Shown piece by piece: positions 17,987-35,244 of a DNA stretch of 64,000 nucleotides (position 1 is the first letter of the stretch; every line of letters starts with the position of its first letter). The notes beneath the pieces are model-generated. The model was not told the DNA's origin, made no database searches, and saw only the letters and a program-made list of their open reading frames with translations. Source of the stretch: Escherichia coli (GTDB taxonomy: Bacteria; Pseudomonadota; Gammaproteobacteria; Enterobacterales; Enterobacteriaceae); the NCBI RefSeq assembly GCF_048403405.1, contig NZ_CP183129.1; one strand, given 5' to 3'. Both the position numbers and the translations under genes were made by a program.

Positions 17987-19030
17987 ATGCGCTATCGCAT
18001 TTTCCTTCTCTTTTTTTTCGCTTTGTTGCCGACGTCTTTGGTGTGGGCGGCACCAGCGCAACGGGCGTTTTCCGACTGGCAGGTCACCTGTAATAACCAA
18101 AACTTCTGCGTGGCGCGTAATACGGGCGATCATAACGGACTGGTGATGACCCTGAGCCGCAGCGCCGGGGCGCATACCGATGCCGTTTTACGTATTGAGC
18201 GCGGCGGGTTGAAGTCGCCGGATGCGTCTGAAGGGGAGATAGCGCCACGGCTGCTGTTAGATGGTGAGCCGTTGGCGTTAAGTGGTGACAAGTGGCGGAT
18301 TTCACCATGGTTATTAGTAACCGATGATACGGCAACCATCACCGCGTTTTTGCAGCTGATTCAGGAAGGGAAGGCAATCACCTTACGCGATGGCAATCAG
18401 ACCATTTCTCTGAATGGCTTAAAAGCGGCGTTGTTGTTTATTGATGCTCAGCAAAAGCGCGTTGGCAGTGAAACCGCGTGGATAAAGAAAGGGGACGAAC
18501 CGCCGCTCAGCGTACCGCCCGCGCCTGCGCTGAAAGAGGTCGCGGTGGTTAACCCAACGCCGACGCCACTCTCACTCGAAGAACGCAACGATTTGCTGGA
18601 TTATGGAAACTGGCGGATGAATGGTCTGCGCTGCTCGCTTGATCCATTGCGTCGAGAGGTAAATGTCACTGCGCTGACCGATGATAAAGCGCTGATGATG
18701 ATTAGCTGTGAGGCAGGGGCCTATAACACCATTGATTTGGCCTGGATTGTGTCGCGTAAAAAGCCACTGGCCTCGCGCCCGGTTCGGTTACGTTTGCCGT
18801 TCAACAACGGTCAGGAGACGAATGAACTGGAACTGATGAACGCAACATTTGATGAGAAATCGCGTGAACTGGTGACCTTAGCGAAAGGGCGCGGATTAAG
18901 CGATTGTGGCATTCAGGCGCGCTGGCGCTTTGACGGTCAGCGTTTTCGCCTGGTGCGTTACGCCGCAGAACCCACCTGCGATAACTGGCATGGGCCAGAC
19001 GCCTGGCCCACGTTGTGGATCACCCGTTAA
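17987..19030 (+). CDS. ypfG: DUF1176-family secreted protein YpfG
   Basis: 347 aa with Sec signal peptide (MRYRIFLLFFFALLPTSLVWAAPA). Confidence 0.8.
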   Translation: MRYRIFLLFFFALLPTSLVWAAPAQRAFSDWQVTCNNQNFCVARNTGDHNGLVMTLSRSAGAHTDAVLRIERGGLKSPDASEGEIAPRLLLDGEPLALSGDKWRISPWLLVTDDTATITAFLQLIQEGKAITLRDGNQTISLNGLKAALLFIDAQQKRVGSETAWIKKGDEPPLSVPPAPALKEVAVVNPTPTPLSLEERNDLLDYGNWRMNGLRCSLDPLRREVNVTALTDDKALMMISCEAGAYNTIDLAWIVSRKKPLASRPVRLRLPFNNGQETNELELMNATFDEKSRELVTLAKGRGLSDCGIQARWRFDGQRFRLVRYAAEPTCDNWHGPDAWPTLWITR

Positions 19031-19061
19031 ACAAAATCCCAGATGCGCCCCTATAAAGCGC

Positions 19062-19110
19062 ACGGACCGTCCCCTCGCCCCTCTGGGGAGAGGGTTAGGG
19101 TGAGGGGAAC
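19062..19110 (+). repeat. GC-rich palindromic dispersed repeat, copy 1 (possibly Box C-type; family unconfirmed)
   Basis: CGGACCGTCCCCTCGCCCCTCTGGGGAGAGGGTTAGGGTGAGGGGAACA; internal inverted repeat CCCTCGCCCC/GGGGAGAGGG; about 46 of 49 nt identical to 32455-32512, same orientation. Confidence 0.6.
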
Positions 19111-19132
19111 ATACAGCATCCGGCGATCACCA

Positions 19133-21136
19133 TCAGGCACCTTTCACTCCCAGCACGTTATGCGCTTTTGCCACAATATTCTCGGCGGTAAAGCCAAAGA
19201 ACGGGAACAGCTTATCCGCCGGAGCAGATTCCCCATAGCCGGTCATCCCGACAATTGCCCCTTTCAGACCAACATATTTGTACCAGTAATCGGCGATGCC
19301 TGCTTCCACCGCCACGCGAGCCGCAACGTTAGAAGGCAACACCGACTCCCGATATTCCTCATCCTGGGCGTCGAAAATATCGGTCGAGGGCAGGGAAACT
19401 ACGCGTACATTGCGACCTTCTCCCGCTAATTTCTCTGCCGCTTGCAGGGTGATTTCCATCTCTGAACCGGTGGCAATCAAAATAATATCTGGCTTACCAC
19501 CGCTGTCTTTCAGTACATAACCGCCACGAGCAATCTCTTTAACCTGATCCGGCGTACGTTCCACCTGGGCCAGATTCTGCCTTGAGAGGATCAGTGCCGT
19601 CGGTCCGTTGTGGCGCTCAACGGCCAGCTTCCAGCCCACCGCTGCTTCCACCTGATCGCACGGTCGCCAGGTGCTGAAATTTGGCGTTAAGCGCAGACTG
19701 GCCAGTTGCTCAACAGCCTGGTGCGTAGGACCATCTTCGCCCAGACCAATTGAGTCGTGGGTATAAACCATAATCTGCCGCGCTTTCATTAGTGCCGCCA
19801 TCCGCGCGGCGTTACGGGCGTATTCAACAAACATCAGGAACGTCGCGGTATACGGCACAAAGCCGCCGTGGTGCGCAATGCCGTTGGCGATAGCGGTCAT
19901 GCCAAATTCACGCACCCCGTAGTGAATGTAGTTGCCCGCCGGATCTTCCTTCAGCGACACAGAACCTTTCCAGATGGTCAGGTTGCTGGGAGCCAGATCC
20001 GCCGAACCGCCGAGCAGCTCCGGTAGCAAGGGGCCATAAGCGTTAAGCGTATTTTGCGAAGCCTTACGGGTGGCGATTTTCGCCGGATTCGCCTGTAATT
20101 CATTGATATATTTCTGAGTCGTTTTCTCCCAGTCCTTCGGTAAACCACCGCTCATCCGACGGGTAAACTCTTCTGCCAGTTGCGGATGAGCCTTTTTATA
20201 GGCGGCAAACTTCTCATTCCAGCTCTGCTGCGCTTTTTCGCCTTTTTCGCGGGCATCCCAGGCGTGATAAATCTCTTTAGGGATCTCAAATGGCGGATGG
20301 TGCCAGCCCAGTTTTTGCCGTGCCAGCGCCACTTCTTCTTCCCCCAGTGGTGCGCCGTGCGCCTCTTCCTTACCTGCTTTATTCGGCGATCCAAAGCCAA
20401 TCACCGTACGGCAGATAATCAGCGACGGCTTATCTTTCACGCTTTGCGCTTCAAGGATCGCTTCCTTCACCGCCTGCGGATCGTGACCGTCGATCTCGTG
20501 GATCACATGCCAGTGATAGGCTTCAAAACGTTTTGCTGTATCGTCGGTAAACCAGCCTTCGGTTTCACCGTCGATGGAAATACCGTTGTGATCGTAAAAA
20601 CCAATCAGCTTGCCCAGTCCCAGCGTGCCCGCCAGCGAACAGACTTCGTGGGAAATACCTTCCATCAGGCAACCGTCGCCCATAAACACATAGGTGAAGT
20701 GATCGACAATTTCATGATCCGGCTGGTTAAACTGCGCCGCCAGTGTACGCTCTGCTATCGCCAGCCCGACGGCGTTCGCCAAACCTTGTCCAAGTGGACC
20801 GGTGGTGGTTTCAACACCTGGCGTATAACCAATCTCCGGGTGACCTGGGGTTTTTGAATGCAACTGACGGAAGTTCTTCAGTTCTTCCAGCGGCAGGTCG
20901 TAACCGGTCAGATGTAGCAAACTGTAGAGCAGCATCGACGCGTGGCCGTTGGAAAGAATAAAGCGGTCGCGATCATACCAGGTTGGGTCGGTGGGGTTAT
21001 GTTTAAGAAAATCGTTCCACAGCACTTCGGCAATATCAGCCATGCCCATCGGCGCGCCGGGATGACCAGAATTGGCTTTTTGTACCGCATCCATACTGAG
21101 TGCGCGAATCGCATTGGCAAGGTCTTTTCGGGACAT
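19133..21136 (-). CDS. tktB: transketolase 2
   Basis: Start trimmed to ATG (complement of 21134-21136): [40 protein letters not shown]... (667 aa); TPP-binding transketolase. Confidence 0.93.
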
Positions 21137-21155
21137 ATAACACTCCGTGGCTGGT

Positions 21156-22106
21156 TTATAGTTTGGCGGCAAGAAGATCTTCCAGTTTGCGTTGATCAAC
21201 GGCGAACAGACGAATGCCTTCAGACAGTTTTTCTACCGCCATTGCATCCTGATTGTGCTCCCAACGGAACTCCGCTTCGCTCATGGGAGCTGGGCGTGGG
21301 AACGTCTGAGAAGGTGGGATTAATTTACGTACCACTGGCGAAACTTTTTCCTGCAGCTCCTTCAGCAAATTCGGTGCGATAGTCAGTCGATCGCAGCCGG
21401 TTAAGGCGAGGATTTGTTCGGTGCGACGGAAGCTCGCGCCCATCACAATGGTTTCATAGTGGTGTTGCTTATAGTAGTCGTAGATATTGCGTACTGATTT
21501 AACGCCTGGATCTTCTTCCACCACATACGGGTCCATCGGCTTGCGTGCCTGATACCAGTCATAAATACGCCCGACAAACGGCGAAATCAGAAAAACGCCC
21601 GCTTCTGCACAGGCCCGCGCCTGTGCAAAAGAAAACAGCAGCGTCAGGTTGCAGTTAATACCTTCTTTTTCCAGCTCTTCTGCCGCGCGAATTCCTTCCC
21701 AGGTTGAAGCCAACTTGATCAAAATGCGTGATTTCTCAACGCCTTGTTGCTGATACAAGTCCACCAGATGGCGCGCCTTCTCAATACTCTTTTCTTTATC
21801 AAAAGAGAGGCGTGCATCAACTTCTGTTGACACGCGACCGGGTACGATTTTGAGAATTTCAGCACCGAAATTGACCGCCAGTTTGTCACACGCTGCGACC
21901 ACCTGTTGTTCCTGGGTTTTGCCATTTTTTCTACCCCAGGCGATAGCATCGTCTATTAAATGCTCATATTGTGATAATCCGGCAGCCTTGAGTAACAGCG
22001 AAGGATTGGTGGTGGCATCCTGGGGATGATAATGGCGAATGGACTCAATATCGCCGCTGTCTGCCACGACAGTGGTGAACTGTTTGATGCCGTCTAACTC
22101 GTTCAT
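21156..22106 (-). CDS. talA: transaldolase A
   Basis: 316 aa, [39 protein letters not shown]...; 19 bp upstream of tktB (talA-tktB operon). Confidence 0.93.
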
Positions 22107-22394
22107 AGGAAATACTCCTTGAAAAGTAAAGTGTTAGATGAGTGCGTTAATTCACACTTCTGAGAAATTTCGCTAAACGCATCAAAAAAGCATAGCAGAC
22201 AGGCATGGTATTGCTGGATTAAGCAGGTAACATCAGTGTTATAGGATTATTACCAAAACATTATATTAATGGTGAGAGTTTGGACTTGCTCAAAGTCTGT
22301 AGACTCCGGCAAGGTAATAATGTGCGCCACGTTGTGGGCAGGGGCTGTTGCCCACACACTTTATTTGTGAACGTTACGTGAAAGGAACAACCAA

Positions 22395-24674
22395 ATGGAT
22401 GACCAGTTAAAACAAAGTGCACTTGATTTCCATGAATTTCCAGTTCCAGGGAAAATCCAGGTTTCTCCAACCAAGCCTCTGGCAACGCAGCGCGATCTGG
22501 CGCTGGCCTACTCACCAGGCGTTGCCGCACCTTGTCTTGAAATCGAAAAAGACCCGTTAAAAGCCTACAAATATACCGCGCGCGGTAACCTGGTGGCGGT
22601 GATCTCTAACGGTACGGCGGTGCTGGGGTTAGGCAACATTGGCGCGCTGGCAGGCAAACCGGTGATGGAAGGCAAGGGCGTTCTGTTTAAGAAATTCGCC
22701 GGGATTGATGTATTTGACATTGAAGTTGATGAACTCGACCCGGACAAATTTATTGAAGTCGTCGCCGCGCTTGAACCGACCTTCGGCGGCATCAACCTCG
22801 AAGACATTAAAGCGCCAGAATGTTTCTATATTGAACAGAAACTGCGCGAGCGGATGAATATTCCGGTATTCCACGACGATCAGCACGGCACGGCAATCAT
22901 CAGCACTGCCGCCATCCTCAACGGTTTGCGCGTGGTGGAGAAAAACATCTCTGACGTGCGGATGGTGGTTTCCGGCGCGGGTGCCGCAGCAATCGCCTGT
23001 ATGAACCTGCTGGTAGCGCTGGGTCTGCAAAAACATAACATCGTGGTTTGCGACTCAAAAGGCGTTATCTATCAGGGCCGTGAGCCAAACATGGCGGAAA
23101 CCAAAGCCGCATATGCGGTGGTGGATGACGGCAAACGTACCCTCGATGATGTGATTGAAGGCGCGGATATTTTCCTCGGCTGTTCCGGCCCGAAAGTGCT
23201 GACCCAGGAAATGGTGAAGAAAATGGCTCGAGCGCCAATGATCCTGGCGCTGGCGAACCCGGAACCGGAAATTCTGCCGCCGCTGGCGAAAGAAGTGCGT
23301 CCGGATGCCATCATCTGCACCGGTCGTTCCGACTACCCGAACCAGGTGAACAACGTTCTTTGCTTCCCGTTCATCTTCCGTGGCGCGCTGGACGTTGGCG
23401 CAACGGCTATCAATGAAGAGATGAAACTGGCGGCAGTACGCGCGATTGCAGAACTGGCCCATGCGGAACAGAGTGAAGTGGTGGCTTCAGCTTATGGCGA
23501 TCAGGATCTGAGCTTTGGTCCGGAATACATCATTCCAAAACCGTTTGATCCGCGCTTGATCGTTAAGATCGCTCCTGCGGTCGCTAAAGCCGCGATGGAG
23601 TCGGGCGTGGCGACGCGTCCGATTGCTGATTTCGACGTCTACATCGACAAGCTGACGGAGTTCGTTTACAAAACCAACCTGTTTATGAAGCCGATTTTTT
23701 CCCAGGCTCGCAAAGCGCCGAAGCGCGTCGTTCTGCCGGAAGGGGAAGAGGCGCGCGTTCTGCATGCCACTCAGGAACTGGTAACGCTGGGGCTGGCGAA
23801 ACCGATCCTTATCGGTCGTCCGAACGTGATCGAAATGCGCATTCAGAAACTGGGCTTGCAGATCAAAGCGGGTGTTGATTTTGAGATCGTCAATAACGAA
23901 TCCGATCCGCGCTTTAAAGAGTACTGGACTGAATACTTCCAGATCATGAAGCGTCGCGGTGTCACTCAGGAACAGGCTCAGCGTGCGCTGATCAGTAATC
24001 CGACAGTGATCGGCGCAATCATGGTTCAGCGTGGCGAAGCCGATGCAATGATCTGCGGTACGGTGGGCGATTATCATGAACATTTTAGCGTGGTAAAAAA
24101 TGTCTTTGGTTATCGCGATGGCGTTCACACCGCAGGTGCCATGAACGCGCTGCTGCTGCCGAGTGGTAACACCTTTATTGCCGATACCTACGTCAATGAC
24201 GAACCAGACGCAGAAGAGCTGGCGGAGATCACCTTGATGGCGGCAGAAACTGTTCGTCGTTTTGGCATTGAGCCGCGTGTGGCTCTGTTGTCGCACTCCA
24301 ACTTTGGTTCTTCTGACTGCCCGTCGTCGAGCAAAATGCGTCAGGCGCTGGAACTGGTCAGGGAACGTGCACCAGAACTGATGATTGATGGTGAAATGCA
24401 CGGCGATGCAGCGCTGGTGGAAGCGATTCGCAGCGACCGTATGCCGGACAGCCCTTTGAAAGGTTCCGCTAATATTCTGGTGATGCCGAACATGGAAGCT
24501 GCCCGCATTAGTTACAACTTATTGCGCGTTTCCAGCTCGGAAGGTGTGACTGTCGGCCCGGTGCTGATGGGCGTGGCGAAACCGGTTCACGTGTTAACGC
24601 CGATCGCATCGGTACGTCGTATCGTCAACATGGTGGCGCTAGCCGTGGTTGAAGCACAAACCCAACCGCTGTAA
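22395..24674 (+). CDS. maeB: NADP-dependent malic enzyme (malic enzyme core + phosphotransacetylase-like C-terminal domain)
   Basis: 759 aa, [44 protein letters not shown]... Confidence 0.93.
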
Positions 24675-24692
24675 TTCATTCTTAACTCTCAC

Positions 24693-24727
24693 GCTTACCC
24701 TGAATATTCAGGGTAAGCGGTTTTCCT
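24693..24727 (+). terminator. strong intrinsic terminator after maeB
   Basis: Perfect palindrome GCTTACCCTGAATA/TATTCAGGGTAAGC followed by GGTTTTCC, 19 bp after the maeB stop. Confidence 0.8.
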
Positions 24728-24966
24728 GAAATATATTAGCAAAGCTTATTACTGAGTTTGCGAATAATAAAAAAAGCAGTATATAAAATATCTCGATATT
24801 ATTTTATTTATATTCATGCCTCGCATATGAAAGTTTATTCATAACAGTAAATATCTCTCCATTCTTAGTGATCTACCTCACCTTTTAAACGCGCTTGCCG
24901 AATTTTGTTATTTACTCTGACGAAAAATTGTCACGATACACGAAAGTTTTTCACAGGCGGCGACTC

Positions 24967-25302
24967 ATGGATAAAGAACGCATCATTCAGGAATTTGTGC
25001 CCGGCAAACAGGTCACACTGGCGCATCTCATCGCGCATCCCGGCGAGGAACTGGAGAAGAAAATCGGCGTTCCTGATGCGGGCGCAATCGGCATTATGAC
25101 GCTAACTCCCGGCGAAACGGCGATGATCGCCGGTGATTTAGCACTAAAAGCCGCCGATGTGCATATCGGTTTTCTCGACCGTTTTAGCGGCGCGTTGGTG
25201 ATTTATGGCTCGGTGGGTGCAGTAGAAGAAGCGTTATCACAAACCGTCAGCGGTTTAGGGCGTTTATTAAATTATACGCTTTGTGAAATGACCAAAAGTT
25301 AA
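24967..25302 (+). CDS. eutS: ethanolamine-utilisation microcompartment shell protein EutS (BMC domain)
   Basis: ATG 24967: [57 protein letters not shown]... (111 aa). The track start at 24895 is upstream in-frame in an AT-rich leader. Confidence 0.9.
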
Positions 25303-25314
25303 TACGAGGCATTC

Positions 25315-25794
25315 ATGAAACGAATTGCGTTTGTGGGTACCGTCGGGGCAGGAAAAACAACGTTATTTAATGCGTTGCAGGGAGATTATACCCTCGCCAG
25401 AAAAACGCAGGCCGTAGAATTTAATGATAAGGGCGATATTGATACGCCGGGTGAATATTTTAGCCATCCCCGCTGGTATCACGCCTTAATTACCACGCTA
25501 CAGGATGTGGACATGCTGATCTATGTCCATGGCGCGAATGACCCGGAAAGTCGGTTGCCTGCCGGGTTGCTGGATATTGGCGTCAGCAAACGGCAAATCG
25601 CCGTCATCAGTAAAACGGACATGCCAGATGCTGACGTCGCCGCAACGCGAAAGTTATTGCTTGAGACGGGCTTCGAAGAGCCGATTTTCGAGCTAAACAG
25701 CCACGACCCGCAAAGCGTGCAGCAACTGGTGGATTATCTGGCATCTCTCACCAAACAGGAGGAAGCAGGTGAAAAAACTCATCACAGCGAATGA
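25315..25794 (+). CDS. eutP: EutP, P-loop NTPase of the eut operon
   Basis: 159 aa; Walker A GTVGAGKTT. Confidence 0.9.
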   Translation: MKRIAFVGTVGAGKTTLFNALQGDYTLARKTQAVEFNDKGDIDTPGEYFSHPRWYHALITTLQDVDMLIYVHGANDPESRLPAGLLDIGVSKRQIAVISKTDMPDADVAATRKLLLETGFEEPIFELNSHDPQSVQQLVDYLASLTKQEEAGEKTHHSE

Positions 25795-26470
25795 TATTCG
25801 TGAAGCACACGCGCGCGGCGAACAGGCAATGTCCGTGGTTCTGCGCGCCAGCATTATTACCCCGGAAGCCCGTGAAGTGGCAGATCTACTGGGTTTTACC
25901 ATCACTGAATGTGATGAATCGACCCCGGTAACGGCGTCCGTTCCCGCCTGCGTGCCAGCCGATAAAACCGAAAGCCAGCGTATCCGCGAAACCATCATCG
26001 CCCAGCTACCGGAAGGCCAGTTTACCGAAAGCCTGGTCGCGCAGCTGATGGAAAAAGTGATGAAGGAAAAACAGTCACTGGAGCAGGGTGCAATGCAGCC
26101 GAGTTTCAAATCGGTGACCGGCAAAGGCGGCATCAAAGTTATTGATGGCAGCAGCGTCAAGTTTGGTCGTTTCGACGGCGCAGAGCCGCATTGCGTGGGC
26201 TTGACTGATCTTGTGACCGGAGACGACGGCAGCAGCATGGCCGCCGGTTTTATGCAGTGGGAGAACGCATTCTTCCCGTGGACCCTGAACTACGACGAAA
26301 TCGACATGGTGCTGGAAGGGGAGCTGCATGTTCGCCACGAAGGCGAAACCATGATCGCCAAAGCAGGCGACGTAATGTTTATCCCGAAAGGCTCCAGCAT
26401 CGAATTTGGTACGACATCCAGCGTGAAATTCCTGTATGTCGCCTGGCCGGCTAACTGGCAATCCCTATGA
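25769..26470 (+). CDS. eutQ: EutQ, cupin-fold protein (acetate kinase activity reported)
   Basis: 233 aa; overlaps eutP by 26 bp in a different frame. Confidence 0.88.
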   Translation: MKKLITANDIREAHARGEQAMSVVLRASIITPEAREVADLLGFTITECDESTPVTASVPACVPADKTESQRIRETIIAQLPEGQFTESLVAQLMEKVMKEKQSLEQGAMQPSFKSVTGKGGIKVIDGSSVKFGRFDGAEPHCVGLTDLVTGDDGSSMAAGFMQWENAFFPWTLNYDEIDMVLEGELHVRHEGETMIAKAGDVMFIPKGSSIEFGTTSSVKFLYVAWPANWQSL

Positions 26471-27270
26471 AAGATTTCATCACCGAAGCATGGCTAAGAG
26501 CGAATCATACGCTTAGCGAAGGCGCAGAGATCCATCTCCCTGCGGACAGTCGCCTGACGCCCTCTGCCCGGGAGTTGCTGGAAAGCCGCCATCTGCGCAT
26601 CAAGTTTATTGACGAGCAGGGCCGCCTGTTTGTTGACGATGAACAGCAGCAGCCGCAGCCCGTTCACGGGCTGACCAGTAGTGATGAACATCGGCAGGCG
26701 TGCTGCGAACTGTGCCGCCAGCCGGTGGCGAAAAAGCCGGACACGCTGACTCACCTGTCGGCGGAAAAAATGGTCGCCAAAAGCGATCCGCGTCTGGGTT
26801 TTCGCGCGGTTCTCGACAGCACCATTGCGCTGGCAGTGTGGCTGCAAATTGAACTGGCGGAACCGTGGCAGCCGTGGCTGGCGGACATCCGCTCGCGTCT
26901 TGGCAACATTATGCGCGCCGATGCGCTGGGGGAACCGCTGGCCTGCCAAGCGATTGTCGGGCTTTCTGACGAAGATCTGCATCGGCTTTCTCATCAGCCG
27001 CTGCGCTATCTTGGTCACGATCATCTGGTGCCGGAAGCCAGCCACGGGCGCGATGCGGCGTTACTCAATCTGCTACGCACCAAAGTGCGGGAAACCGAAA
27101 CCGTAGCGGCGCAGGTGTTTATAACCCGCAGTTTTGAAGTATTACGCCCGGACATCTTGCAGGCGCTGAACCGCCTTTCGAGCACGGTCTACGTGATGAT
27201 GATCCTGAGCGTAACGAAGCAGCCGCTAACGGTGAAGCAGATCCAACAACGACTGGGGGAAACGCAATGA
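26467..27270 (+). CDS. eutT: EutT, ATP:cob(I)alamin adenosyltransferase
   Basis: 267 aa; 4-bp overlap (ATGA) with eutQ. Confidence 0.88.
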
Positions 27271-28283
27271 TTATTGAACGTTGTCGTGAACTGGCGTTGC
27301 GAGCGCCCGCCAGAGTGGTTTTTCCGGATGCGTTAGATCAACGTGTGCTGAAAGCCGCGCAATATTTACATCAACAAGGTCTGGCAACGCCCATTCTGGT
27401 CGCCAATCCGTTTGAACTTCGTCAGTTTGCGCTCAGTCACGGCGTGGCGATGGACGGGCTACAGGTGATAGATCCGCATGGCAACCTCGCAATGCGGGAA
27501 GAATTTGCTCTCCGCTGGCTGGCCCGTGCGGGCGAAAAAACGCCGCCGGATGCGTTGGAAAAACTCACCGATCCGCTGATGTTCGCTGCCGCAATGGTCA
27601 GCGCCGGGACAGCGGATGTCTGTATCGCGGGCAATCTCTCTTCCACGGCGAATGTGCTGCGTGCCGGATTACGCATTATTGGCTTACAGCCAGGCTGTAA
27701 AACGCTCTCCTCCATTTTCCTGATGCTGCCACAGTACAGTGGCCCCGCATTGGGCTTTGCCGATTGCAGCGTAGTGCCACAGCCGACGGCGGCGCAGCTG
27801 GCGGATATCGCGCTTGCCAGCGCCGAAACCTGGCGCGCCATCACCGGAGAAGAGCCGCGCGTGGCGATGCTGTCGTTTTCCAGCAACGGTAGTGCCCGTC
27901 ACCCCTGCGTTGCCAACGTCCAGCAGGCGACAGAAATCGTCCGTGAGCGCGCACCGAAGCTGGTGGTGGATGGCGAGTTGCAGTTTGACGCCGCCTTCGT
28001 GCCGGAAGTGGCGGCGCAAAAAGCGCCTGCCAGCCCGCTACAAGGCAAGGCCAATGTGATGGTTTTTCCGTCGCTGGAAGCCGGAAATATTGGCTACAAA
28101 ATCGCACAACGACTCGGCGGATATCGTGCCGTCGGGCCATTGATACAAGGGCTTGCCGCGCCGATGCACGATCTCTCTCGTGGTTGTAGCGTGCAGGAAA
28201 TTATCGAGCTGGCGCTGGTGGCAGCTGTGCCGCGTCAGACAGAAGTGAACCGCGAAAGCAGTTTACAAACACTGGTTGAATGA
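27267..28283 (+). CDS. eutD: EutD, phosphotransacetylase
   Basis: 338 aa, Pta-like (resembles the C-terminal domain of maeB/pta); 4-bp overlap with eutT. Confidence 0.9.
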
Positions 28284-28321
28284 ACGGTCCCGTTCTGGAC
28301 CCTGATAAAGAGGAAAGCACA

Positions 28322-28615
28322 ATGGAAGCATTAGGAATGATCGAAACCCGGGGCCTGGTTGCACTGATTGAGGCTTCTGACGCGATGGTGAAAGCTGCGC
28401 GCGTCAAGCTGGTTGGTGTTAAGCAGATTGGCGGCGGCCTGTGTACTGCCATGGTTCGTGGTGATGTTGCAGCCTGTAAAGCCGCGACCGACGCAGGTGC
28501 TGCAGCGGCACAGCGTATCGGCGAGCTGGTATCTGTACACGTTATCCCGCGTCCGCACGGCGACCTGGAAGAAGTCTTCCCGATCGGCCTGAAAGGCGAT
28601 AGCAGCAACCTGTAA
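28322..28615 (+). CDS. eutM: EutM, hexameric BMC shell protein
   Basis: ATG 28322: [55 protein letters not shown]... (97 aa). The track start at 28280 is upstream in-frame. Confidence 0.92.
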
Positions 28616-28623
28616 TCACCCTG

Positions 28624-28660
28624 TGTGACGTCGATTCGGGCGTCACGCTCTCTCCTTTTT
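28624..28660 (+). other. stem-loop with U-rich tail in the eutM-eutN spacer (possible partial terminator or mRNA-stability element)
   Basis: GTGACG-tcgattcggg-CGTCAC followed by GCTCTCTCCTTTTTCAGTTTTCC, inside a 106-bp spacer in an otherwise tightly packed operon. Confidence 0.5.
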
Positions 28661-28721
28661 CAGTTTTCCTTCCGCGGAGGGTAGGGGGAGCTTTTACCTG
28701 AAATACGCCACGGAGGCGGGT

Positions 28722-29009
28722 ATGAAACTGGCAGTCGTCACTGGACAAATTGTTTGTACCGTACGCCATCACGGACTGGCGCATGACAAATTGCTGATGG
28801 TGGAAATGATTGATCCACAAGGTAATCCTGACGGGCAATGCGCCGTCGCCATCGACAATATTGGCGCGGGAACCGGGGAGTGGGTGTTGCTGGTGAGTGG
28901 CAGTTCTGCCCGCCAGGCGCATAAAAGCGAAACATCACCGGTCGATCTGTGCGTGATTGGCATCGTCGATGAGGTGGTGTCTGGCGGTCAGGTAATTTTC
29001 CACAAATAA
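28722..29009 (+). CDS. eutN: EutN, pentameric vertex shell protein
   Basis: 95 aa, MKLAVVTGQIVCTVRHHGLAHDKLLMVEMIDPQGNPDGQCAVAIDNIGAG... Confidence 0.9.
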   Translation: MKLAVVTGQIVCTVRHHGLAHDKLLMVEMIDPQGNPDGQCAVAIDNIGAGTGEWVLLVSGSSARQAHKSETSPVDLCVIGIVDEVVSGGQVIFHK

Positions 29010-29020
29010 GGCAGAACATC

Positions 29021-30424
29021 ATGAATCAACAGGATATTGAACAGGTGGTGAAAGCGGTACTGCTGAAAATGCAAAGCAGTGACACGCCGCCCGCCGCCGT
29101 TCATGAGATGGGCGTTTTCGCGTCCCTGGATGACGCCGTTGCGGCAGCCAAAATTGCCCAGCAAGGGTTAAAGAGCGTGGCAATGCGCCAGTTAGCCATT
29201 GCTGCCATTCGTGAAGCAGGCGAAAAACACGCCAGAGATTTAGCGGAACTTGCCGTCAGTGAAACCGGCATGGGCCGCGTCGAAGATAAATTTGCCAAAA
29301 ACGTCGCTCAGGCGCGCGGCACACCAGGCGTTGAGTGCCTCTCACCACAGGTGCTGACCGGTGACAACGGCCTGACCCTGATTGAAAACGCACCCTGGGG
29401 CGTGGTGGCTTCGGTGACGCCTTCCACTAACCCGGCGGCAACCGTAATTAACAACGCCATCAGCCTGATTGCCGCGGGCAACAGCGTCATTTTTGCCCCG
29501 CATCCGGCGGCGAAAAAAGTCTCCCAGCGGGCGATTACGCTGCTCAACCAGGCGATTGTTGCCGCAGGCGGGCCGGAAAACTTACTGGTTACTGTGGCCA
29601 ATCCGGATATCGAAACCGCACAACGCTTGTTCAAGTTTCCCGGCATCGGCCTGCTGGTGGTGACCGGCGGCGAAGCGGTAGTAGAAGCGGCGCGTAAACA
29701 CACCAATAAACGTCTGATTGCCGCAGGCGCTGGCAACCCGCCGGTAGTGGTGGATGAAACCGCTGACCTCGCCCGTGCTGCTCAGTCCATCGTCAAAGGC
29801 GCGTCTTTCGATAACAACATCATTTGTGCCGACGAAAAGGTACTGATTGTTGTTGATAGCGTAGCCGATGAACTGATGCGTCTGATGGAAGGCCAGCACG
29901 CGGTGAAACTGACCGCAGAGCAGGCGCAGCAGCTGCAACCGGTGTTGCTGAAAAATATCGACGAGCGCGGAAAAGGCACCGTCAGCCGTGACTGGGTTGG
30001 TCGCGATGCGGCGAAAATCGCGGCGGCAATCGGCTTTGAAGTTCCGGAACAAACGCGACTGCTGTTTGTAGAAACCACCGCAGAACATCCGTTTGCTGTG
30101 ACTGAACTGATGATGCCGGTGCTGCCCGTCGTGCGCGTCGCCAACGTGGCGGATGCCATTGCGCTGGCGGTGAAACTGGAAGGCGGTTGCCATCACACGG
30201 CGGCAATGCACTCGCGCAACATCGAGAACATGAACCAGATGGCGAACGCCATTGATACCAGCATTTTCGTTAAGAACGGACCGTGCATTGCCGGGCTGGG
30301 GCTGGGCGGGGAAGGCTGGACCACCATGACCATCACCACGCCAACCGGTGAAGGGGTAACCAGCGCGCGTACGTTTGTCCGTCTGCGTCGCTGTGTATTA
30401 GTTGATGCGTTTCGCATTGTTTAA
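29021..30424 (+). CDS. eutE: EutE, CoA-acylating acetaldehyde dehydrogenase
   Basis: 467 aa aldehyde dehydrogenase family with catalytic Cys context (NIICADEKV). Confidence 0.9.
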   Translation: MNQQDIEQVVKAVLLKMQSSDTPPAAVHEMGVFASLDDAVAAAKIAQQGLKSVAMRQLAIAAIREAGEKHARDLAELAVSETGMGRVEDKFAKNVAQARGTPGVECLSPQVLTGDNGLTLIENAPWGVVASVTPSTNPAATVINNAISLIAAGNSVIFAPHPAAKKVSQRAITLLNQAIVAAGGPENLLVTVANPDIETAQRLFKFPGIGLLVVTGGEAVVEAARKHTNKRLIAAGAGNPPVVVDETADLARAAQSIVKGASFDNNIICADEKVLIVVDSVADELMRLMEGQHAVKLTAEQAQQLQPVLLKNIDERGKGTVSRDWVGRDAAKIAAAIGFEVPEQTRLLFVETTAEHPFAVTELMMPVLPVVRVANVADAIALAVKLEGGCHHTAAMHSRNIENMNQMANAIDTSIFVKNGPCIAGLGLGGEGWTTMTITTPTGEGVTSARTFVRLRRCVLVDAFRIV

Positions 30425-30434
30425 GGAGTAACCG

Positions 30435-31271
30435 ATGGCGCACGACGAACAATGGCTCACCCCACGTCTGCAAACGGCGGCAACGCTGTGTAACCAGACG
30501 CCCGCCACGACGGAGTCTCCGCTGTGGCTGGGGGTAGATCTGGGCACCTGCGATGTGGTGTCGATGGTTGTCGACCGCGACGGTCAGCCGGTGGCGGTAT
30601 GCCTCGACTGGGCTGATGTGGTCCGCGACGGCATCGTCTGGGATTTCTTCGGTGCGGTCACCATTGTTCGTCGCCATCTCGACACTCTTGAGCAGCAATT
30701 CGGTCGCCGTTTTAGCCATGCGGCGACCTCATTTCCTCCTGGTACGGACCCGCGTATTTCCATCAACGTGCTGGAGTCTGCCGGACTGGAAGTGAGCCAT
30801 GTGCTGGATGAGCCAACCGCAGTTGCGGATCTGCTGCAACTGGACAACGCCGGTGTAGTGGATATCGGCGGTGGCACCACCGGCATTGCCATCGTGAAAA
30901 AGGGCAAGGTGACTTACTCGGCAGATGAAGCCACCGGCGGACATCATATCTCTCTGACTCTCGCCGGAAATCGCCGTATTTCGCTGGAAGAGGCGGAGCA
31001 GTACAAGCGCGGTCACGGTGACGAGATTTGGCCTGCGGTGAAACCGGTGTACGAAAAAATGGCGGACATTGTCGCCCGGCATATTGAAGGGCAGGGCATT
31101 ACTGATTTATGGCTGGCGGGCGGCTCTTGTATGCAACCGGGCGTGGCGGAACTGTTTCGCAAACAATTCCCGGCGTTACAGGTGCATCTACCGCAGCACA
31201 GTTTGTTTATGACCCCGCTGGCGATCGCCAGTAGCGGGCGAGAGAAAGCGGAGGGGATCTATGCAAAATGA
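30435..31271 (+). CDS. eutJ: EutJ, actin/Hsp70-fold chaperone-like protein
   Basis: 278 aa; sugar-kinase/Hsp70/actin-fold motifs (DLGTCDVVS, VDIGGGTTGIAIV). Confidence 0.88.
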   Translation: MAHDEQWLTPRLQTAATLCNQTPATTESPLWLGVDLGTCDVVSMVVDRDGQPVAVCLDWADVVRDGIVWDFFGAVTIVRRHLDTLEQQFGRRFSHAATSFPPGTDPRISINVLESAGLEVSHVLDEPTAVADLLQLDNAGVVDIGGGTTGIAIVKKGKVTYSADEATGGHHISLTLAGNRRISLEEAEQYKRGHGDEIWPAVKPVYEKMADIVARHIEGQGITDLWLAGGSCMQPGVAELFRKQFPALQVHLPQHSLFMTPLAIASSGREKAEGIYAK

Positions 31272-32448
31272 ATTGCAGGCCGCGCTCTTTCAGGCGTTCG
31301 ATACCCTGAATCTGCAACGGGTAAAAACATTTAGCGTTCCACCGGTGACGCTTTGCGGTCCGGGCGCGGTGAGCAGTTGTGGGCAGCAAGCGCAAACGCG
31401 TGGGCTGAAACATCTGTTCGTGATGGCAGACAGCTTTTTGCATCAGGCAGGGATGACCGCCGGGCTGACGCGTAGCCTGGCCGTTAAAGGTATCGCCATG
31501 ACGCTCTGGCCATGTCCGGTGGGCGAACCATGCATCACCGACATGTGTGCAGCCGTGGCGCAGTTGCGTGAATCAGGCTGTGACGGGGTGATTGCGTTTG
31601 GCGGCGGCTCGGTGCTGGATGCAGCAAAAGCCGTGGCGTTGCTGGTGACGAACCCGGATAGCACGCTGGCAGAGATGTCAGAAACCAGCGTTCTGCAACC
31701 GCGCCTGCCGTTGATTGCCATTCCAACTACCGCCGGAACCGGTTCTGAAACCACCAACGTAACGGTGATTATCGACGCGGTGAGCGGGCGCAAGCAGGTG
31801 TTAGCCCACGCCTCGCTGATGCCGGATGTGGCGATTCTCGACGCTGCGCTGACCGAAGGCGTGCCGTCGCATGTCACGGCGATGACCGGTATCGACGCGT
31901 TAACCCATGCTATTGAAGCGTACAGCGCGCTGAACGCTACACCGTTTACCGACAGCCTGGCGATTGGCGCAATCGCGATGATTGGTAAATCACTGCCGAA
32001 AGCGGTGGGCTACGGTCATGACCTTGCCGCGCGCGAGAGCATGTTGCTGGCTTCATGCATGGCGGGAATGGCGTTTTCCAGTGCGGGGCTTGGGTTATGC
32101 CACGCGATGGCGCATCAGCCGGGGGCGGCGCTGCATATTCCGCACGGTCTGGCGAACGCCATGTTGTTGCCAACGGTGATGGAATTTAACCGGATGGTTT
32201 GTCGTGAACGCTTTAGTCAGATTGGTCGGGCGCTGCGAACTAAAAAATCCGACGATCGTGACGCTATTAACGCGGTAAGTGAGCTGATTGCGGAAGTCGG
32301 GATTGGTAAACGACTGGGCGATATTGGTGCGACATCTGCGCATTACGGCGCATGGGCGCAGGCCGCGCTGGAAGATATTTGTCTGCGCAGCAACCCGCGT
32401 ACCGCCAGCCTGGAGCAGATTGTCGGCCTGTACGCAGCGGCGCAATAA
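31261..32448 (+). CDS. eutG: EutG, iron-containing alcohol dehydrogenase
   Basis: 395 aa Fe-ADH family (GGGSVLDAAK); 11-bp overlap with eutJ. Confidence 0.9.
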   Translation: MQNELQAALFQAFDTLNLQRVKTFSVPPVTLCGPGAVSSCGQQAQTRGLKHLFVMADSFLHQAGMTAGLTRSLAVKGIAMTLWPCPVGEPCITDMCAAVAQLRESGCDGVIAFGGGSVLDAAKAVALLVTNPDSTLAEMSETSVLQPRLPLIAIPTTAGTGSETTNVTVIIDAVSGRKQVLAHASLMPDVAILDAALTEGVPSHVTAMTGIDALTHAIEAYSALNATPFTDSLAIGAIAMIGKSLPKAVGYGHDLAARESMLLASCMAGMAFSSAGLGLCHAMAHQPGAALHIPHGLANAMLLPTVMEFNRMVCRERFSQIGRALRTKKSDDRDAINAVSELIAEVGIGKRLGDIGATSAHYGAWAQAALEDICLRSNPRTASLEQIVGLYAAAQ

Positions 32449-32452
32449 AAGT

Positions 32453-32574
32453 GTACGGACAGTCCCCTCGCCCCTTTGGGGAGAGGGTTAGGGTGAGGGG
32501 AACAGAGTCGCGCCGGTGCAAACAATTACCCTCACCCCGGCCCCTCGGCTTCCAGAGTGAGGGAAAAACCCACT
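32453..32574 (+). repeat. GC-rich multi-palindromic repeat, copy 2 (extended), between eutG and eutH
   Basis: Core 32455-32512 nearly identical to 19062-19110; further inverted arms GGGTGAGGG / CCCTCACCC / GTGAGGG within a 169-bp gap inside the eut operon. Confidence 0.6.
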
Positions 32575-32617
32575 TTCAGCATTGGCAATAAATAACAACT
32601 AACAGGGAGTAAAGGCG

Positions 32618-33844
32618 ATGGGAATTAACGAAATCATCATGTACATCATGATGTTCTTTATGCTGATAGCTGCCGTAGACAGGATCCTGTCGCAGTTCGG
32701 TGGTTCTGCTCGTTTCCTCGGTAAGTTCGGTAAAAGTATCGAAGGATCAGGCGGTCAGTTCGAAGAAGGCTTTATGGCAATGGGCGCTCTGGGCCTGGCG
32801 ATGGTCGGTATGACCGCGCTGGCACCGGTACTGGCTCACGTACTCGGGCCGGTGATTATCCCGGTTTACGAAATGCTCGGCGCAAACCCGTCAATGTTCG
32901 CCGGAACACTGCTGGCGTGCGATATGGGCGGGTTCTTCCTCGCCAAAGAGCTGGCGGGCGGCGACGTAGCAGCGTGGCTATACTCTGGGTTAATTCTCGG
33001 GTCGATGATGGGGCCAACGATTGTGTTTTCCATTCCGGTGGCGCTCGGCATTATCGAACCTTCTGACCGTCGTTATCTGGCGCTCGGCGTGCTGGCGGGC
33101 ATTGTGACCATTCCGATTGGCTGTATTGCTGGTGGTCTGGTTGCTATGTACTCCGGTGTGCAGATCAACGGTCAGCCGGTGGAATTCACCTTTGCGCTGA
33201 TCCTGATGAACATGATCCCGGTACTTATCGTTGCGGTGCTGGTGGCGCTGGGGCTGAAATTCATCCCGGAAAAAATGATCAACGGCTTCCAGATCTTCGC
33301 CAAATTCCTCGTTGCATTGATCACCCTCGGTCTTGCTGCCGCGGTAGTGAAATTCCTCCTTGGCTGGGAACTGATCCCCGGTCTGGATCCTATCTTTATG
33401 GCCCCTGGCGACAAACCCGGTGAAGTGATGCGCGCCATTGAAGTTATCGGTTCTATCTCCTGCGTTCTGTTAGGGGCGTACCCGATGGTGCTGCTGCTGA
33501 CCCGCTGGTTTGAAAAACCGCTGATGAGCGTCGGTAAAGTGCTGAATATGAACAACATCGCGGCAGCTGGCATGGTGGCAACGCTTGCTAACAACATCCC
33601 GATGTTCGGCATGATGAAGCAGATGGATACCCGCGGCAAAGTCATCAACTGCGCCTTCGCCGTTTCCGCTGCTTTCGCCCTGGGTGACCACTTAGGCTTC
33701 GCCGCTGCCAACATGAACGCCATGATTTTCCCGATGATTGTCGGCAAGTTGATCGGCGGCGTAACGGCGATTGGCGTGGCGATGATGCTGGTGCCAAAAG
33801 AAGACGCGACCGCGGCCAAAACCGAAGCGGAGGCACAATCGTGA
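32618..33844 (+). CDS. eutH: EutH, ethanolamine permease
   Basis: 408 aa polytopic membrane protein; ATG 32618 after GGGAG. Confidence 0.9.
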   Translation: MGINEIIMYIMMFFMLIAAVDRILSQFGGSARFLGKFGKSIEGSGGQFEEGFMAMGALGLAMVGMTALAPVLAHVLGPVIIPVYEMLGANPSMFAGTLLACDMGGFFLAKELAGGDVAAWLYSGLILGSMMGPTIVFSIPVALGIIEPSDRRYLALGVLAGIVTIPIGCIAGGLVAMYSGVQINGQPVEFTFALILMNMIPVLIVAVLVALGLKFIPEKMINGFQIFAKFLVALITLGLAAAVVKFLLGWELIPGLDPIFMAPGDKPGEVMRAIEVIGSISCVLLGAYPMVLLLTRWFEKPLMSVGKVLNMNNIAAAGMVATLANNIPMFGMMKQMDTRGKVINCAFAVSAAFALGDHLGFAAANMNAMIFPMIVGKLIGGVTAIGVAMMLVPKEDATAAKTEAEAQS

Positions 33845-35244
33845 ACACTCGCCAGCTACTGAGCGTCGGTATCGATATCGGCACCACCACCACCCAGGTG
33901 ATTTTCTCCCACCTGGAGCTGGTTAACCGTGCGGCGGTGTCGCAGGTGCCGCGCTACGAATTCATCAAACGCGAAATTAGCTGGCAAAGCCCGGTGTTCT
34001 TTACCCCTGTCGATAAACAGGGTGGTTTAAAAGAAGCGGAACTGAAAACCTTAATCCTGGAGCAATATCAGGCTGCGGGCATTGCGCCGGAAAGTGTTGA
34101 TTCTGGTGCCATCATCATCACCGGTGAAAGCGCGAAAACCCGCAACGCTCGCCCGGCGGTGATGACGCTCTCCCAGTCTCTGGGCGATTTTGTCGTCGCC
34201 AGCGCCGGGCCGCATCTCGAATCCGTGATCGCCGGTCACGGTGCCGGGGCGCAAACCCTTTCTGAACAACGGCTGTGTCGGGTACTGAATATCGATATCG
34301 GCGGTGGCACTGCGAACTACGCCCTGTTCGATGCCGGAAAAATCAGCGGCACCGCCTGCCTCAACGTCGGCGGTCGCCTGCTGGAAACCGACAGCCAGGG
34401 GCGCGTGGTTTACGCTCATAAACCGGGGCAGATGATTGTGGATGAGTGCTTCGGCGCAGGCACCGACGCCCGTTCGCTGACCGGCGCGCAGCTGGTGCAG
34501 GTTACCCGGCGGATGGCAGAGCTGATTGTCGAAGTGATTGACGGAACGCTTTCGCCGCTCGCGCAGGCATTAATGCAAACCGGTTTGCTGCCCGCAGGTG
34601 TTACGCCCGAAATCATTACGCTTTCTGGCGGCGTGGGCGAATGTTATCGCCACCAGCCCGCCGACCCGTTCTGTTTTGCCGATATCGGCCCGCTTCTGGC
34701 AACGGCGCTGCATGACCATCCGCGCCTGCGTGAGATGAACGTGCAGTTTCCGGCGCAAACCGTACGCGCCACGGTGATTGGCGCGGGTGCACATACCCTT
34801 TCGCTCTCTGGCAGCACAATCTGGCTGGAGGGCGTACAACTGCCGCTGCGCAATTTGCCGGTGGCGATCCCAATTGATGAAACGGATCTGGTGAGTGCCT
34901 GGCAACAGGCGCTGATTCAGCTGGATCTTGATCCCAATTCTGACGCGTACGTGCTGGCGCTTCCCGCCTCGCTGCCTGTGCGTTACGCCGCGGTACTGAC
35001 GGTCATCAACGCGCTGGTCGATTTCGTCGCGCGTTTTCCGAATCCGCATCCCCTGCTGGTGGTGGCCGGGCAGGACTTTGGTAAAGCTCTGGGCATGTTG
35101 TTGCGCCCACAGCTACAACAACTCCCGTTGGCAGTCATTGACGAAGTGATTGTCCGCGCGGGGGACTATATCGACATTGGTACGCCTCTTTTTGGCGGAT
35201 CGGTTGTGCCGGTGACGGTGAAATCACTCGCATTTCCTTCCTGA
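33841..35244 (+). CDS. eutA: EutA, ethanolamine ammonia-lyase reactivase
   Basis: 467 aa; GTG start 33841 overlapping the eutH stop; ASKHA-fold motifs (GIDIGTTTT). Confidence 0.9.
   Translation: MNTRQLLSVGIDIGTTTTQVIFSHLELVNRAAVSQVPRYEFIKREISWQSPVFFTPVDKQGGLKEAELKTLILEQYQAAGIAPESVDSGAIIITGESAKTRNARPAVMTLSQSLGDFVVASAGPHLESVIAGHGAGAQTLSEQRLCRVLNIDIGGGTANYALFDAGKISGTACLNVGGRLLETDSQGRVVYAHKPGQMIVDECFGAGTDARSLTGAQLVQVTRRMAELIVEVIDGTLSPLAQALMQTGLLPAGVTPEIITLSGGVGECYRHQPADPFCFADIGPLLATALHDHPRLREMNVQFPAQTVRATVIGAGAHTLSLSGSTIWLEGVQLPLRNLPVAIPIDETDLVSAWQQALIQLDLDPNSDAYVLALPASLPVRYAAVLTVINALVDFVARFPNPHPLLVVAGQDFGKALGMLLRPQLQQLPLAVIDEVIVRAGDYIDIGTPLFGGSVVPVTVKSLAFPS

Follow-up and report, generated by a model that had tools for sequence, protein, structure and literature searches.

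The GC-rich palindrome between the convergent genes ypfG and tktB, found in the stretch of Escherichia coli DNA analysed here (64,000 nucleotides, hereafter the window), is, judged by its sequence, one solo copy of BoxC, a dispersed, non-coding, chromosomal and intergenic repeat of this species. BoxC has been known in E. coli since the 1990s and was later rediscovered as the 'potential intrastrand triplex' or PIT element (Hoyne & Maher 2000/2002), as TMECO (Holder et al. 2015, PMC4666352) and as HPG1/HPG2 (Kaplan et al. 2016, PMC5100583). What we describe is a known element at a strain-variable locus, with nothing in it to surprise a specialist in enterobacterial repeats. The present analysis adds an allele series at the ypfG–tktB junction, the replacement of REP by BoxC at two loci of the window, and read-through at BoxC copies drawn from published tables of transcript 3' ends.

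The ypfG–tktB spacer

On the + strand the ypfG frame closes at 19030 and, facing it on the − strand, the tktB frame closes at 19133, so that the gap between them spans 19031–19132 and measures 102 bp. A 49-nt string quoted in the preliminary description of this DNA matches exactly at 19063–19111 (+), inside the gap, and a near-identical copy with 2 mismatches lies at 32456–32504 (+), between eutG and eutH; the 49-mer was not found once in 100 dinucleotide-preserving shuffles. That description had placed a GC-rich repeat in a 102-bp gap between convergent ypfG and tktB stops, in the same orientation as the eut copy, and both the ORF ends and the position of the 49-mer agree with it, as does the location of both copies on the + strand. 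Its gene names are likewise those of the RefSeq annotation of strain 4621, a genome whose spacer is 100% identical and in which the flanks are annotated as ypfG (DUF1176) and tkt, followed by tal. Homologs of YpfG carry PF06674, and the K-12 gene order, talA–tktB / ypfG–nudK–aegA, matches that of the window. The features of the locus are as follows.

17987–19030, + strand: ypfG coding sequence (DUF1176 protein), stop TAA at 19028–19030; from the ORF list and the RefSeq annotation of strain 4621.
19031–19037, + strand: left end of the spacer, ACAAAAT, common to all REP-type spacer alleles with 0–1 mismatch; from the seven-allele alignment.
19038–19050, + strand: filler specific to the BoxC allele, CCCAGATGCGCCC, 13 nt, missing from the REP alleles.
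19051–19111, + strand: whole solo BoxC, type A-mm, about 60 bp; from the consensus match, the flank consensus and identity with K-12 copies.
19051–19071, + strand: conserved BoxC left flank, CTATAAAGCGCACGGACCGTC (family consensus cAAaAA.G.GC.CGgACgGTC, from 14 type-A copies).
19071–19081, + strand: C-rich arm, CCCCTCGCCCC, forming the 5' side of the hairpin; its G at position 19077 makes the element an 'mm' subtype.
19085–19094, + strand: G-block 1, GGGGAGAGGG, complementary to the C-arm but for a single G·A mismatch.
19098–19107, + strand: G-block 2, GGGTGAGGGG, which lies opposite the C-arm in the fold of minimum energy and is the third strand in the published triplex model.
19085–19107, + strand: G-quadruplex (G4) motif made of G-block 1 and G-block 2; from the G4 regular expression and the HPG1 sequence.
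19114–19132, + strand: right end of the spacer, CAGCATCCGGCGATCACCA, common to all REP alleles and containing the REP 3' half-site GCATCCGGC; from the allele alignment.
19133–21136, − strand: tktB coding sequence (transketolase 2), convergent with ypfG, stop at 19133–19135; from the ORF list, with the RefSeq tkt coding sequence mapping here.

The repeat unit thus runs from an A-rich/GGACNGTC left flank through the C-rich arm and the two G-rich blocks to a short right flank. We set its length at about 60 bp (19051–19111) because similarity to other copies extends beyond the core for 21 nt leftward and for at least 5 nt rightward; the rightward part is GAACA, which ends at 19111, and about 9 nt of weaker family likeness may reach to about 19120.

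Membership of the BoxC family

The published TMECO consensus, 5'-CCCTCNCCC N3-6 GGGNGAGGG N3 GGGNGAGGG-3' (Holder et al. 2015, PMC4666352), is matched exactly at 19072–19106 and at 32465–32499, with no match in 100 shuffles. Agreement with individual copies is closer still: the 36-nt core CCCTCGCCCCTCTGGGGAGAGGGTTAGGGTGAGGGG (19072–19107) is letter for letter that of K-12 TMECO copies 9, 16, 19 and 22 (Table 1 of Holder et al.), and the core of the eut copy is that of copies 7, 11 and 15. Both the TTA second loop of type A and the single mismatched triplet of the 'mm' subtype, with a G in the C-arm, are present at ypfG–tktB. For the flanks we aligned 12 K-12 copies at their published coordinates with the two of the window; all 14, which are of type A, have in common the left-flank consensus given above and the right flank GAACAg. 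Such a comparison of flanks had been proposed in the preliminary description, and those of the window align with the 12 catalogued copies. Both window copies lie between annotated genes.

HPG1 was defined as the G-quadruplex motif dGGGAGAGGGTTAGGGTGAGGG, with four G-tracts and 3-nt loops (PMC5100583). It is present at 19086–19106, and the G4 regular expression matches at 19085–19107 and 32478–32500; these two BoxC copies account for two of the three G4 motifs in the 64-kb window. As all features of BoxC/TMECO that a sequence can reveal (consensus, subtype, flanks, multiple copies, intergenic and chromosomal position) are found, the element is one that was already known. The family also appears in a repeat survey as a known E. 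coli family with a 50-nt model and 22 copies, and older literature, as quoted, gives 56 bp and 32 copies; the unit of about 60 bp described here agrees with these lengths. An Rfam scan of 18000–34000 returned two chance-level matches and no family covering the element; the sole match overlapping it, Antizyme_FSE, reached 22.3 bits where the gathering score is 40 (E = 0.72) and was set aside as chance.

Copy number and distribution

BLAST matches to the 102-bp spacer were found in 5,423 of 5,426 complete E. coli genomes; the median genome has 16 places and the richest 29, and 79,845 places are on chromosomes as against 28 on plasmids. The preliminary description had suspected a dispersed repeat family and had noted that two copies as the only ones in the genome would argue against it. 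Each of the five best-matching genomes (full spacer, 99–100% identity) has 18 places, and the species median is 16, so that this objection falls; the fit to the BoxC consensus, the core shared with four K-12 copies and the presence of copies in nearly every genome bear the suspicion out. Published TMECO counts per strain range from 1–2 in SE15, UM146 and UTI89 to 30 in strain W (Holder et al.), and the same catalogue comprises 63 loci in 56 strains (PMC4666352). For K-12 MG1655, the catalogue holds no copy between 1.35 and 3.05 Mb, and the ypfG–tktB locus is unoccupied there. BoxC in K-12 lies between convergent genes at 7 loci versus 2 between divergent genes.

Beyond the species, a consensus scan of representative bacterial and archaeal genomes yielded at least 142 copies in at least 120 stretches. 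Distant hosts among the matches listed include a Gracilibacteria MAG, Polaromonas, Contendobacter, several Gammaproteobacteria MAGs and a Bacteroidaceae MAG; Betaproteobacteria are also represented among the listed matches to the core motif, which is multi-copy in distant phyla, and the AT-rich Gracilibacteria MAG has more than a dozen listed copies. The distant copies listed have flanks particular to each genome, and inverted pairs are frequent among them. The second G block is kept, with T at the variable position in 133 of the 142 listed copies from distant genomes. The same consensus found at least 146 copies in at least 120 stretches of viral contigs, and an E. coli-type flank accompanied none of the 146 viral-contig copies listed. 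This breadth was known in outline, since a G/C-rich motif of this kind had been reported from more than 260 genomes (Holder et al. 2015, PMC4666352).

Alleles of the ypfG–tktB spacer

The ypfG–tktB junction is present in all the E. coli genomes, and its spacer is polymorphic. K-12 has a spacer of 94 bp with a REP/BIME element; overall, REP-type alleles of 76, 90, 94, 95 and 137 bp occur, all with the same ends as the 102-bp BoxC allele, and what sets them apart from one another is whether half of the REP is duplicated and how many times a tandem 14-bp unit, CAGCATCCGGCAAT, is repeated. Every allele begins with ACAAAAT (0–1 mismatch) and finishes with CAGCATCCGGC[G/A]ATCACCA, and between these common ends the spacer of the window consists of BoxC preceded by the 13 nt of unique filler. 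The full REP palindrome (GCCGGATG.../...CATCCGGC) occurs in the alternative alleles; the spacer of the window has only a remnant of it, the 3' half-site at 19117–19125.

The 38 nt specific to the BoxC allele (19034–19071) are found in exactly 830 of the 5,426 genomes (about 15%), a single time in each, with 0 to about 4 mismatches across the carriers, and at no other E. coli site in the 5,426 genomes that might have served as donor locus. In about 85% of E. coli genomes a REP lies in the spacer and BoxC is absent there. Such single occurrences in 830 genomes, differing by as many as about 4 mismatches, identify the BoxC allele as a single old polymorphism without a donor inside the species. 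The REP 3' half-site at the right end, which in REP alleles is a duplicate of REP's own arm, points in turn to a spacer with a REP as the ancestor of the BoxC allele. The allele is thus an old, lineage-restricted one and, as its right end indicates, derives from a REP-bearing spacer in which most of the REP was replaced and the half-site left standing at the right end.

The junction is no less varied in relatives with YpfG 77–85% identical to that of the window. One state is an 18-bp spacer free of repeats; a different REP also occurs directly past the stop, where the contig breaks. The two genes overlap in Citrobacter freundii, and Salmonella has a 422-bp spacer with a 76-codon ORF. These varied states mark the junction as a site where different elements settled independently.

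The eutG–eutH and tauD–hemB spacers

The second BoxC of the window lies 13 kb from the ypfG–tktB locus, in the 170-bp spacer between the eutG stop (32448) and the eutH start (32619), where two elements are recognized.

32449–32504, + strand: eut BoxC copy, type A-mm, core at 32465–32500, one base past the eutG stop.
32529–32563, − strand: degenerate type-B BoxC, inverted; from its sequence and from the long hairpin it forms with the eut type-A copy in folds.

This pair of a type-A and an inverted type-B copy resembles five K-12 pairs, for which a pairing rule of type A with inverted type B has been published (five sites; Holder et al. 2015, PMC4666352). The 170-bp spacer of the window is found in 304 genomes only; other genomes have at least one REP-pair (BIME) unit between eutG and eutH, in spacers of 99, 116 or 216 bp and in longer spans too, so that here BoxC likewise substitutes for BIME arrays. 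Two points go beyond the preliminary description: the family has already been named, and at both loci BoxC takes the place of the REP or BIME of most other strains.

A third spacer, tauD–hemB, has 106 bp with BoxC in K-12 versus an unrelated 39 bp with a small hairpin in Nissle 1917. Comparison of the alleles at ypfG–tktB, eutG–eutH and tauD–hemB revealed no clean empty site and no target duplication of the kind an insertion would leave; the alleles differ over whole spacers. A REP lies within about 35–65 bp of BoxC at 3 of the 12 K-12 copies examined, a small sample that is suggestive of co-residence of the two elements.

Folding and transcript 3' ends

The folding energies computed for the RNA are −26.2 kcal/mol on the + strand (the ypfG transcript) and −21.1 kcal/mol on the − strand (the tktB transcript). 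In the minimum-energy fold the best partner of the C-arm is the distal G block, through 11 pairs that include the flanking U-A and one G·U. Compared with dinucleotide shuffles, the fold energies of this copy are no better than expected (z between −0.8 and −1.4 or, with the range drawn wider, between −0.7 and −1.6), and the case for structure comes from the family, not from the ypfG–tktB copy.

The element has the GC-rich stem-loop of an intrinsic terminator on both strands; past the stem come AACAUACAGC on the + strand and ACGGUCCGUG on the − strand, neither of which is a U-tract. A scan of 18700–19500 on both strands found no promoter and no terminator. The preliminary description had pointed out that a clean U-tract is missing, and indeed no stem followed by a T-run was found in that region on either strand. 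PIT/BoxC elements have been reported to have no promoter or terminator activity and to leave RNA polymerase unhindered (Hoyne & Maher 2002, as summarized by Holder et al., PMC4666352).

Further evidence comes from the K-12 Term-seq tables of Adams et al. (2021). The 3' end of the adk transcript at 497939/40 corresponds to a separate hairpin-plus-T terminator about 60 nt past the BoxC at 497843–497878, and for hemB and tusA, each with a BoxC behind it, Rho-termination regions are recorded downstream of that BoxC, at 388499(−) and 3607955(−). These 3'-end data indicate that polymerase passes BoxC at three K-12 copies. The earlier opinion that the repeat is something other than a local terminator thus holds on three grounds, namely the missing U-tract, the lack of terminator activity as reported for PIT elements in that summary, and read-through at the adk, hemB and tusA copies. 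The tables, which contain strong ends only, record no curated 3' end at BoxC for the 8 K-12 loci checked, so that a role as protective hairpin is not seen in them directly.

Discussion

What such an element does past two stop codons can be read in several ways. We favour, with a probability of about one half, the reading of BoxC as a hairpin of the 3' UTR that is tolerated there and functions as a REP does. It would be transcribed into the 3' UTRs of both ypfG and tktB and would fold there into a strong GC hairpin without a U-tract on either transcript (about −26 and −21 kcal/mol). Because the hairpin has no U-tract, RNA polymerase would be expected to read through BoxC, and transcription would end beyond it, probably through Rho, within the region antisense to the opposing gene. 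If the hairpin acts at all, it would block 3'–5' exonucleases and would thereby set and protect the mature 3' ends, the same job that REP hairpins perform in strains with REP alleles. Its presence would be tolerated rather than demonstrably selected, and the allele probably passes from strain to strain when the genes beside it undergo homologous recombination. In E. coli mRNAs terminated by Rho, stable stem-loops lacking U-tracts, of which only 24% are REPs, have been reported to mark the 3' ends and to shield them (Dar & Sorek 2018, PMC6061677). The occurrence of BoxC in the exact place where other strains have a REP or another hairpin fits a REP-like role, and so does the excess of convergent over divergent loci in K-12 (7 versus 2). 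Against this reading stand the want of a curated 3' end at the 8 K-12 loci checked, the fold energies, which do not surpass those of shuffles, and earlier functional tests in which RNA polymerase was unaffected; nor does a plain hairpin account for the conservation of the second G block, of which it has no need.

The element might instead be purely neutral or selfish DNA, the relic of a copying process, found past stops and away from promoters and without effect on RNA or DNA. We hold this to be rather unlikely. It agrees with earlier tests that gave no function (promoter, terminator, polymerase passage, conjugation), with the absence of BoxC from this spacer in 85% of genomes and the 18-bp spacer, overlapping genes or other content of relatives, with copy numbers from 1 to 30 between strains, with the want of curated 3' ends at 8 K-12 copies and with unremarkable fold z-scores. 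However, the core, including both G blocks, has hardly varied among many copies, even those of very distant genomes, BoxC repeatedly stands in the exact place of other hairpin-forming elements, and a 3'-UTR stem of −21 to −26 kcal/mol is expected to impede exonucleases whatever its origin. Conservation of the third block across phyla, together with the canonical G4 motif at 19085–19107, would also suit an action at the level of DNA, where a single-stranded triplex or G-quadruplex would stall replication or repair, giving a rearrangement hot spot, or would act as a structural switch. Published data in its favour include a triplex that is stable in vitro by CD and NMR and stops polymerase, an in vitro G4/hairpin transition of the sister motif HPG2, and a sequence variability that is higher around TMECO loci than at controls; both loci of the window, as well as tauD–hemB, are highly polymorphic. 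Yet the REP alleles of the same spacers are equally variable (76–137 bp, with changes in copies of the 14-bp unit), so that spacer variability need not stem from BoxC. Published DMS footprinting in vivo gave no triplex, the duplex winning once the complementary strand is present, and the type A-mm subtype has a mismatched triplet; an action of this sort is, in our judgement, unlikely.

Even smaller is the chance that BoxC serves as a bidirectional hairpin terminator for ypfG and/or tktB, which we consider very unlikely despite its place between two convergent stops, its strong GC stem on both strands and the compact, terminator-typical hairpin of the alternative tauD–hemB allele. The tktB strand does have a T-rich stretch (TTTATAG...GGGATTTTGTTT) about 15–40 nt on, but on neither strand does a T-run begin within 2 nt of the stem. 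BoxC also lies inside operons, where stopping would be harmful (eutG–eutH in the window, pstA–pstB and yihS–yihR in K-12), and both the summarized PIT results and the passage of polymerase at the adk, hemB and tusA copies speak against termination. Very unlikely, too, is insertion by transposition of a miniature, MITE-like element. Multiple copies, presence/absence polymorphism, a core shared with many phyla and viral contigs and the common inverted pairs would all be expected of one. The unit, however, lacks both a target-site duplication and, apart from its internal palindrome, terminal inverted repeats; none of the three loci compared offers a clean empty site, nearly the whole spacer being different; the allele-specific flank has no donor copy elsewhere in E. 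coli; E. coli plasmids are almost devoid of the element; and the allele is old and diverged, not a recent insertion.

The observation that BoxC stands for REP/BIME at two loci 13 kb apart, with a REP half-site at the right edge of the ypfG–tktB allele, and the near-identical core in distant phyla and viral contigs are the basis of a more speculative idea, to which we give little credence: REP and BoxC may be interchangeable in 3'-end 'slots' through directed exchange, or a widespread machinery may recognize the three-block core across phyla. Exchange could come about by copying of BoxC targeted to REP DNA or by hairpin-mediated template switching. If true, a machinery that recognizes the core would both spread the three-block motif and explain the conservation of its third block.

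The tolerated, REP-like hairpin that we prefer can be set beside several known systems. With BoxC/PIT/TMECO/HPG there is no difference in kind, the core, TTA loop, 'mm' G, flanks and intergenic, chromosomal setting being the same. REP and BIME elements are likewise short, GC-rich, intergenic palindromes, transcribed into 3' UTRs and variable between strains; unlike them, BoxC has a three-block C-G-G layout, and the two show no relationship in sequence. A genome contains REPs by the hundred, and these are connected with RAYT transposases and with the binding of IHF and gyrase; for BoxC no such enzyme is known. The protective stem-loops of Dar & Sorek (PMC6061677), among which BoxC may be counted by analogy, are also stable, lack a U-rich follow-on and lie just past the coding sequence with Rho acting downstream; in contrast to them, BoxC has no mapped 3' end in the tables examined. 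Intrinsic terminators have a GC-rich stem past the stop codon and between convergent genes as well, but BoxC has no U-tract, is read through at other copies and occurs also inside operons. ERIC/IRU and MITE-type repeats, too, are dispersed imperfect palindromes of transcribed intergenic regions with presence/absence polymorphism, whereas BoxC is shorter and has no terminal inverted repeats, no target duplications and no clean insertion footprint.

For the annotation of genomes, strong GC hairpins of this kind past stop codons should not be labelled as terminators, as small RNAs or as independent G-quadruplex or triplex 'regulatory sites'. The ypfG–tktB spacer itself, with BoxC in 830 genomes, several REP alleles and a near-empty state in relatives, is a natural allelic series in which any effect of BoxC on mRNA 3' ends or on local stability may be followed.

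Other matches at the BoxC copy and elsewhere in the window

The solo type-A BoxC copy (19051-19111, +) lies in the 102-bp spacer between the convergent ypfG and tktB genes, and one Rfam model overlapped it, the eukaryotic Antizyme frameshift element (19056-19111, -; E = 0.72; 22.3 bits, where the gathering score is 40). This weak hit was judged to be due to chance and driven by the GC stem. Elsewhere, the third canonical G-quadruplex motif of the window is unrelated to BoxC:

30293-30311, + strand, G-quadruplex motif GGGCTGGGGCTGGGCGGGG

The three-block core outside E. coli

The core of BoxC (a C-rich arm and two G-rich blocks) recurs in distant genomes in different settings. JALNXF01, a Gracilibacteria metagenome-assembled genome (MAG) that is an AT-rich member of the candidate phyla radiation, holds more than 12 near-identical copies among the matches listed (comparison loci L009-L022), most commonly as CCCTCTCCCTCTGGGAGAGGGTTGGGGTGAGGG, a GC-rich core within AT-rich flanks. 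In the MAG JANYBJ01 (L023-L048) the core belongs to longer repeats of two families, and in both of them conservation extends for 25 nt or more to its left and right, as in gataaaaagaacgttgttgccccct-core-ttgcgggctccgcccgcgttag; such flanks make the core one module of larger elements in this genome. A consensus scan of the IMG/VR viral contigs returned at least 146 copies in at least 120 stretches, with up to four per stretch among the matches listed (L152-L231 onward), and the E. coli-type BoxC flank was found in none of the viral-contig matches listed. Host DNA may be present in part of this set, where a contig is a predicted prophage. For the E. coli copies, published as TMECO, Holder et al. 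2015 (PMC4666352) reported that there is no link to phages.

Variation at the eutG-eutH and tauD-hemB spacers

A further type-A BoxC copy of the window lies in the following spacer:

32449-32618, eutG-eutH spacer, 170 bp, holding type-A BoxC and, inverted, a degenerate type-B copy

Of 5,426 E. coli genomes, only 304 have this form; in most strains the spacer carries at least one REP-pair (BIME) unit, with lengths of 99, 116 and 216 bp (L147-L149). The spans matched by a 471-bp query reached 818 bp in some genomes, which points to larger BIME arrays at the same place. The right junction of the window form, CAGCATTGGC|AATAAATAAC, bears a loose likeness to the REP end GCATCCGCC|AATAAATAAC.

At tauD-hemB, strain CX08 (L151) has 51 more bases than K-12 (L128) within the left flank of BoxC, and the direct repeats GGACGGTCaCCTCG and GGACAGTCCCgTCG delimit this extra segment. 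K-12 seems to have lost it by a deletion from one repeat to the other, or else CX08 to have gained it by a partial duplication. In Nissle 1917 (L150) the 106-bp BoxC spacer is replaced by an unrelated one of 39 bp carrying a compact hairpin, GCCGGGTTGGATAACCCGGC, an exchange that covers the entire stop-to-stop interval.

The ypfG-tktB junction in relatives and in carriers

In Salmonella enterica the ypfG-tkt spacer is 422 bp long (L143/L144, 3545-3966) and contains a called 76-codon ORF without a Pfam match; a beta-lactamase-family gene is inserted upstream of nudK. Two independent assemblies of a relative whose YpfG is 85% identical (Logan contigs L141 and L142) both stop about 40 bp past the ypfG stop codon, within REP sequence, probably because the assembly broke at this repeat.

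The E. coli REP alleles (L002 3641-3734, L003, L004, L006, L007) vary in how often they repeat a 14-bp tandem unit, CAGCATCCGGCAAT, and in the duplication of a REP half, and together these account for lengths of 76, 90, 94, 95 and 137 bp. The REP alleles thus amount to a small variable-number repeat made from a REP arm. Carriers of the BoxC allele have in total 3-12 detectable BoxC places in some genomes (H6, H8 and H9, matched by the 102-bp spacer query) and 17-18 in others, so that ypfG-tktB is among the few occupied sites in low-copy lineages.
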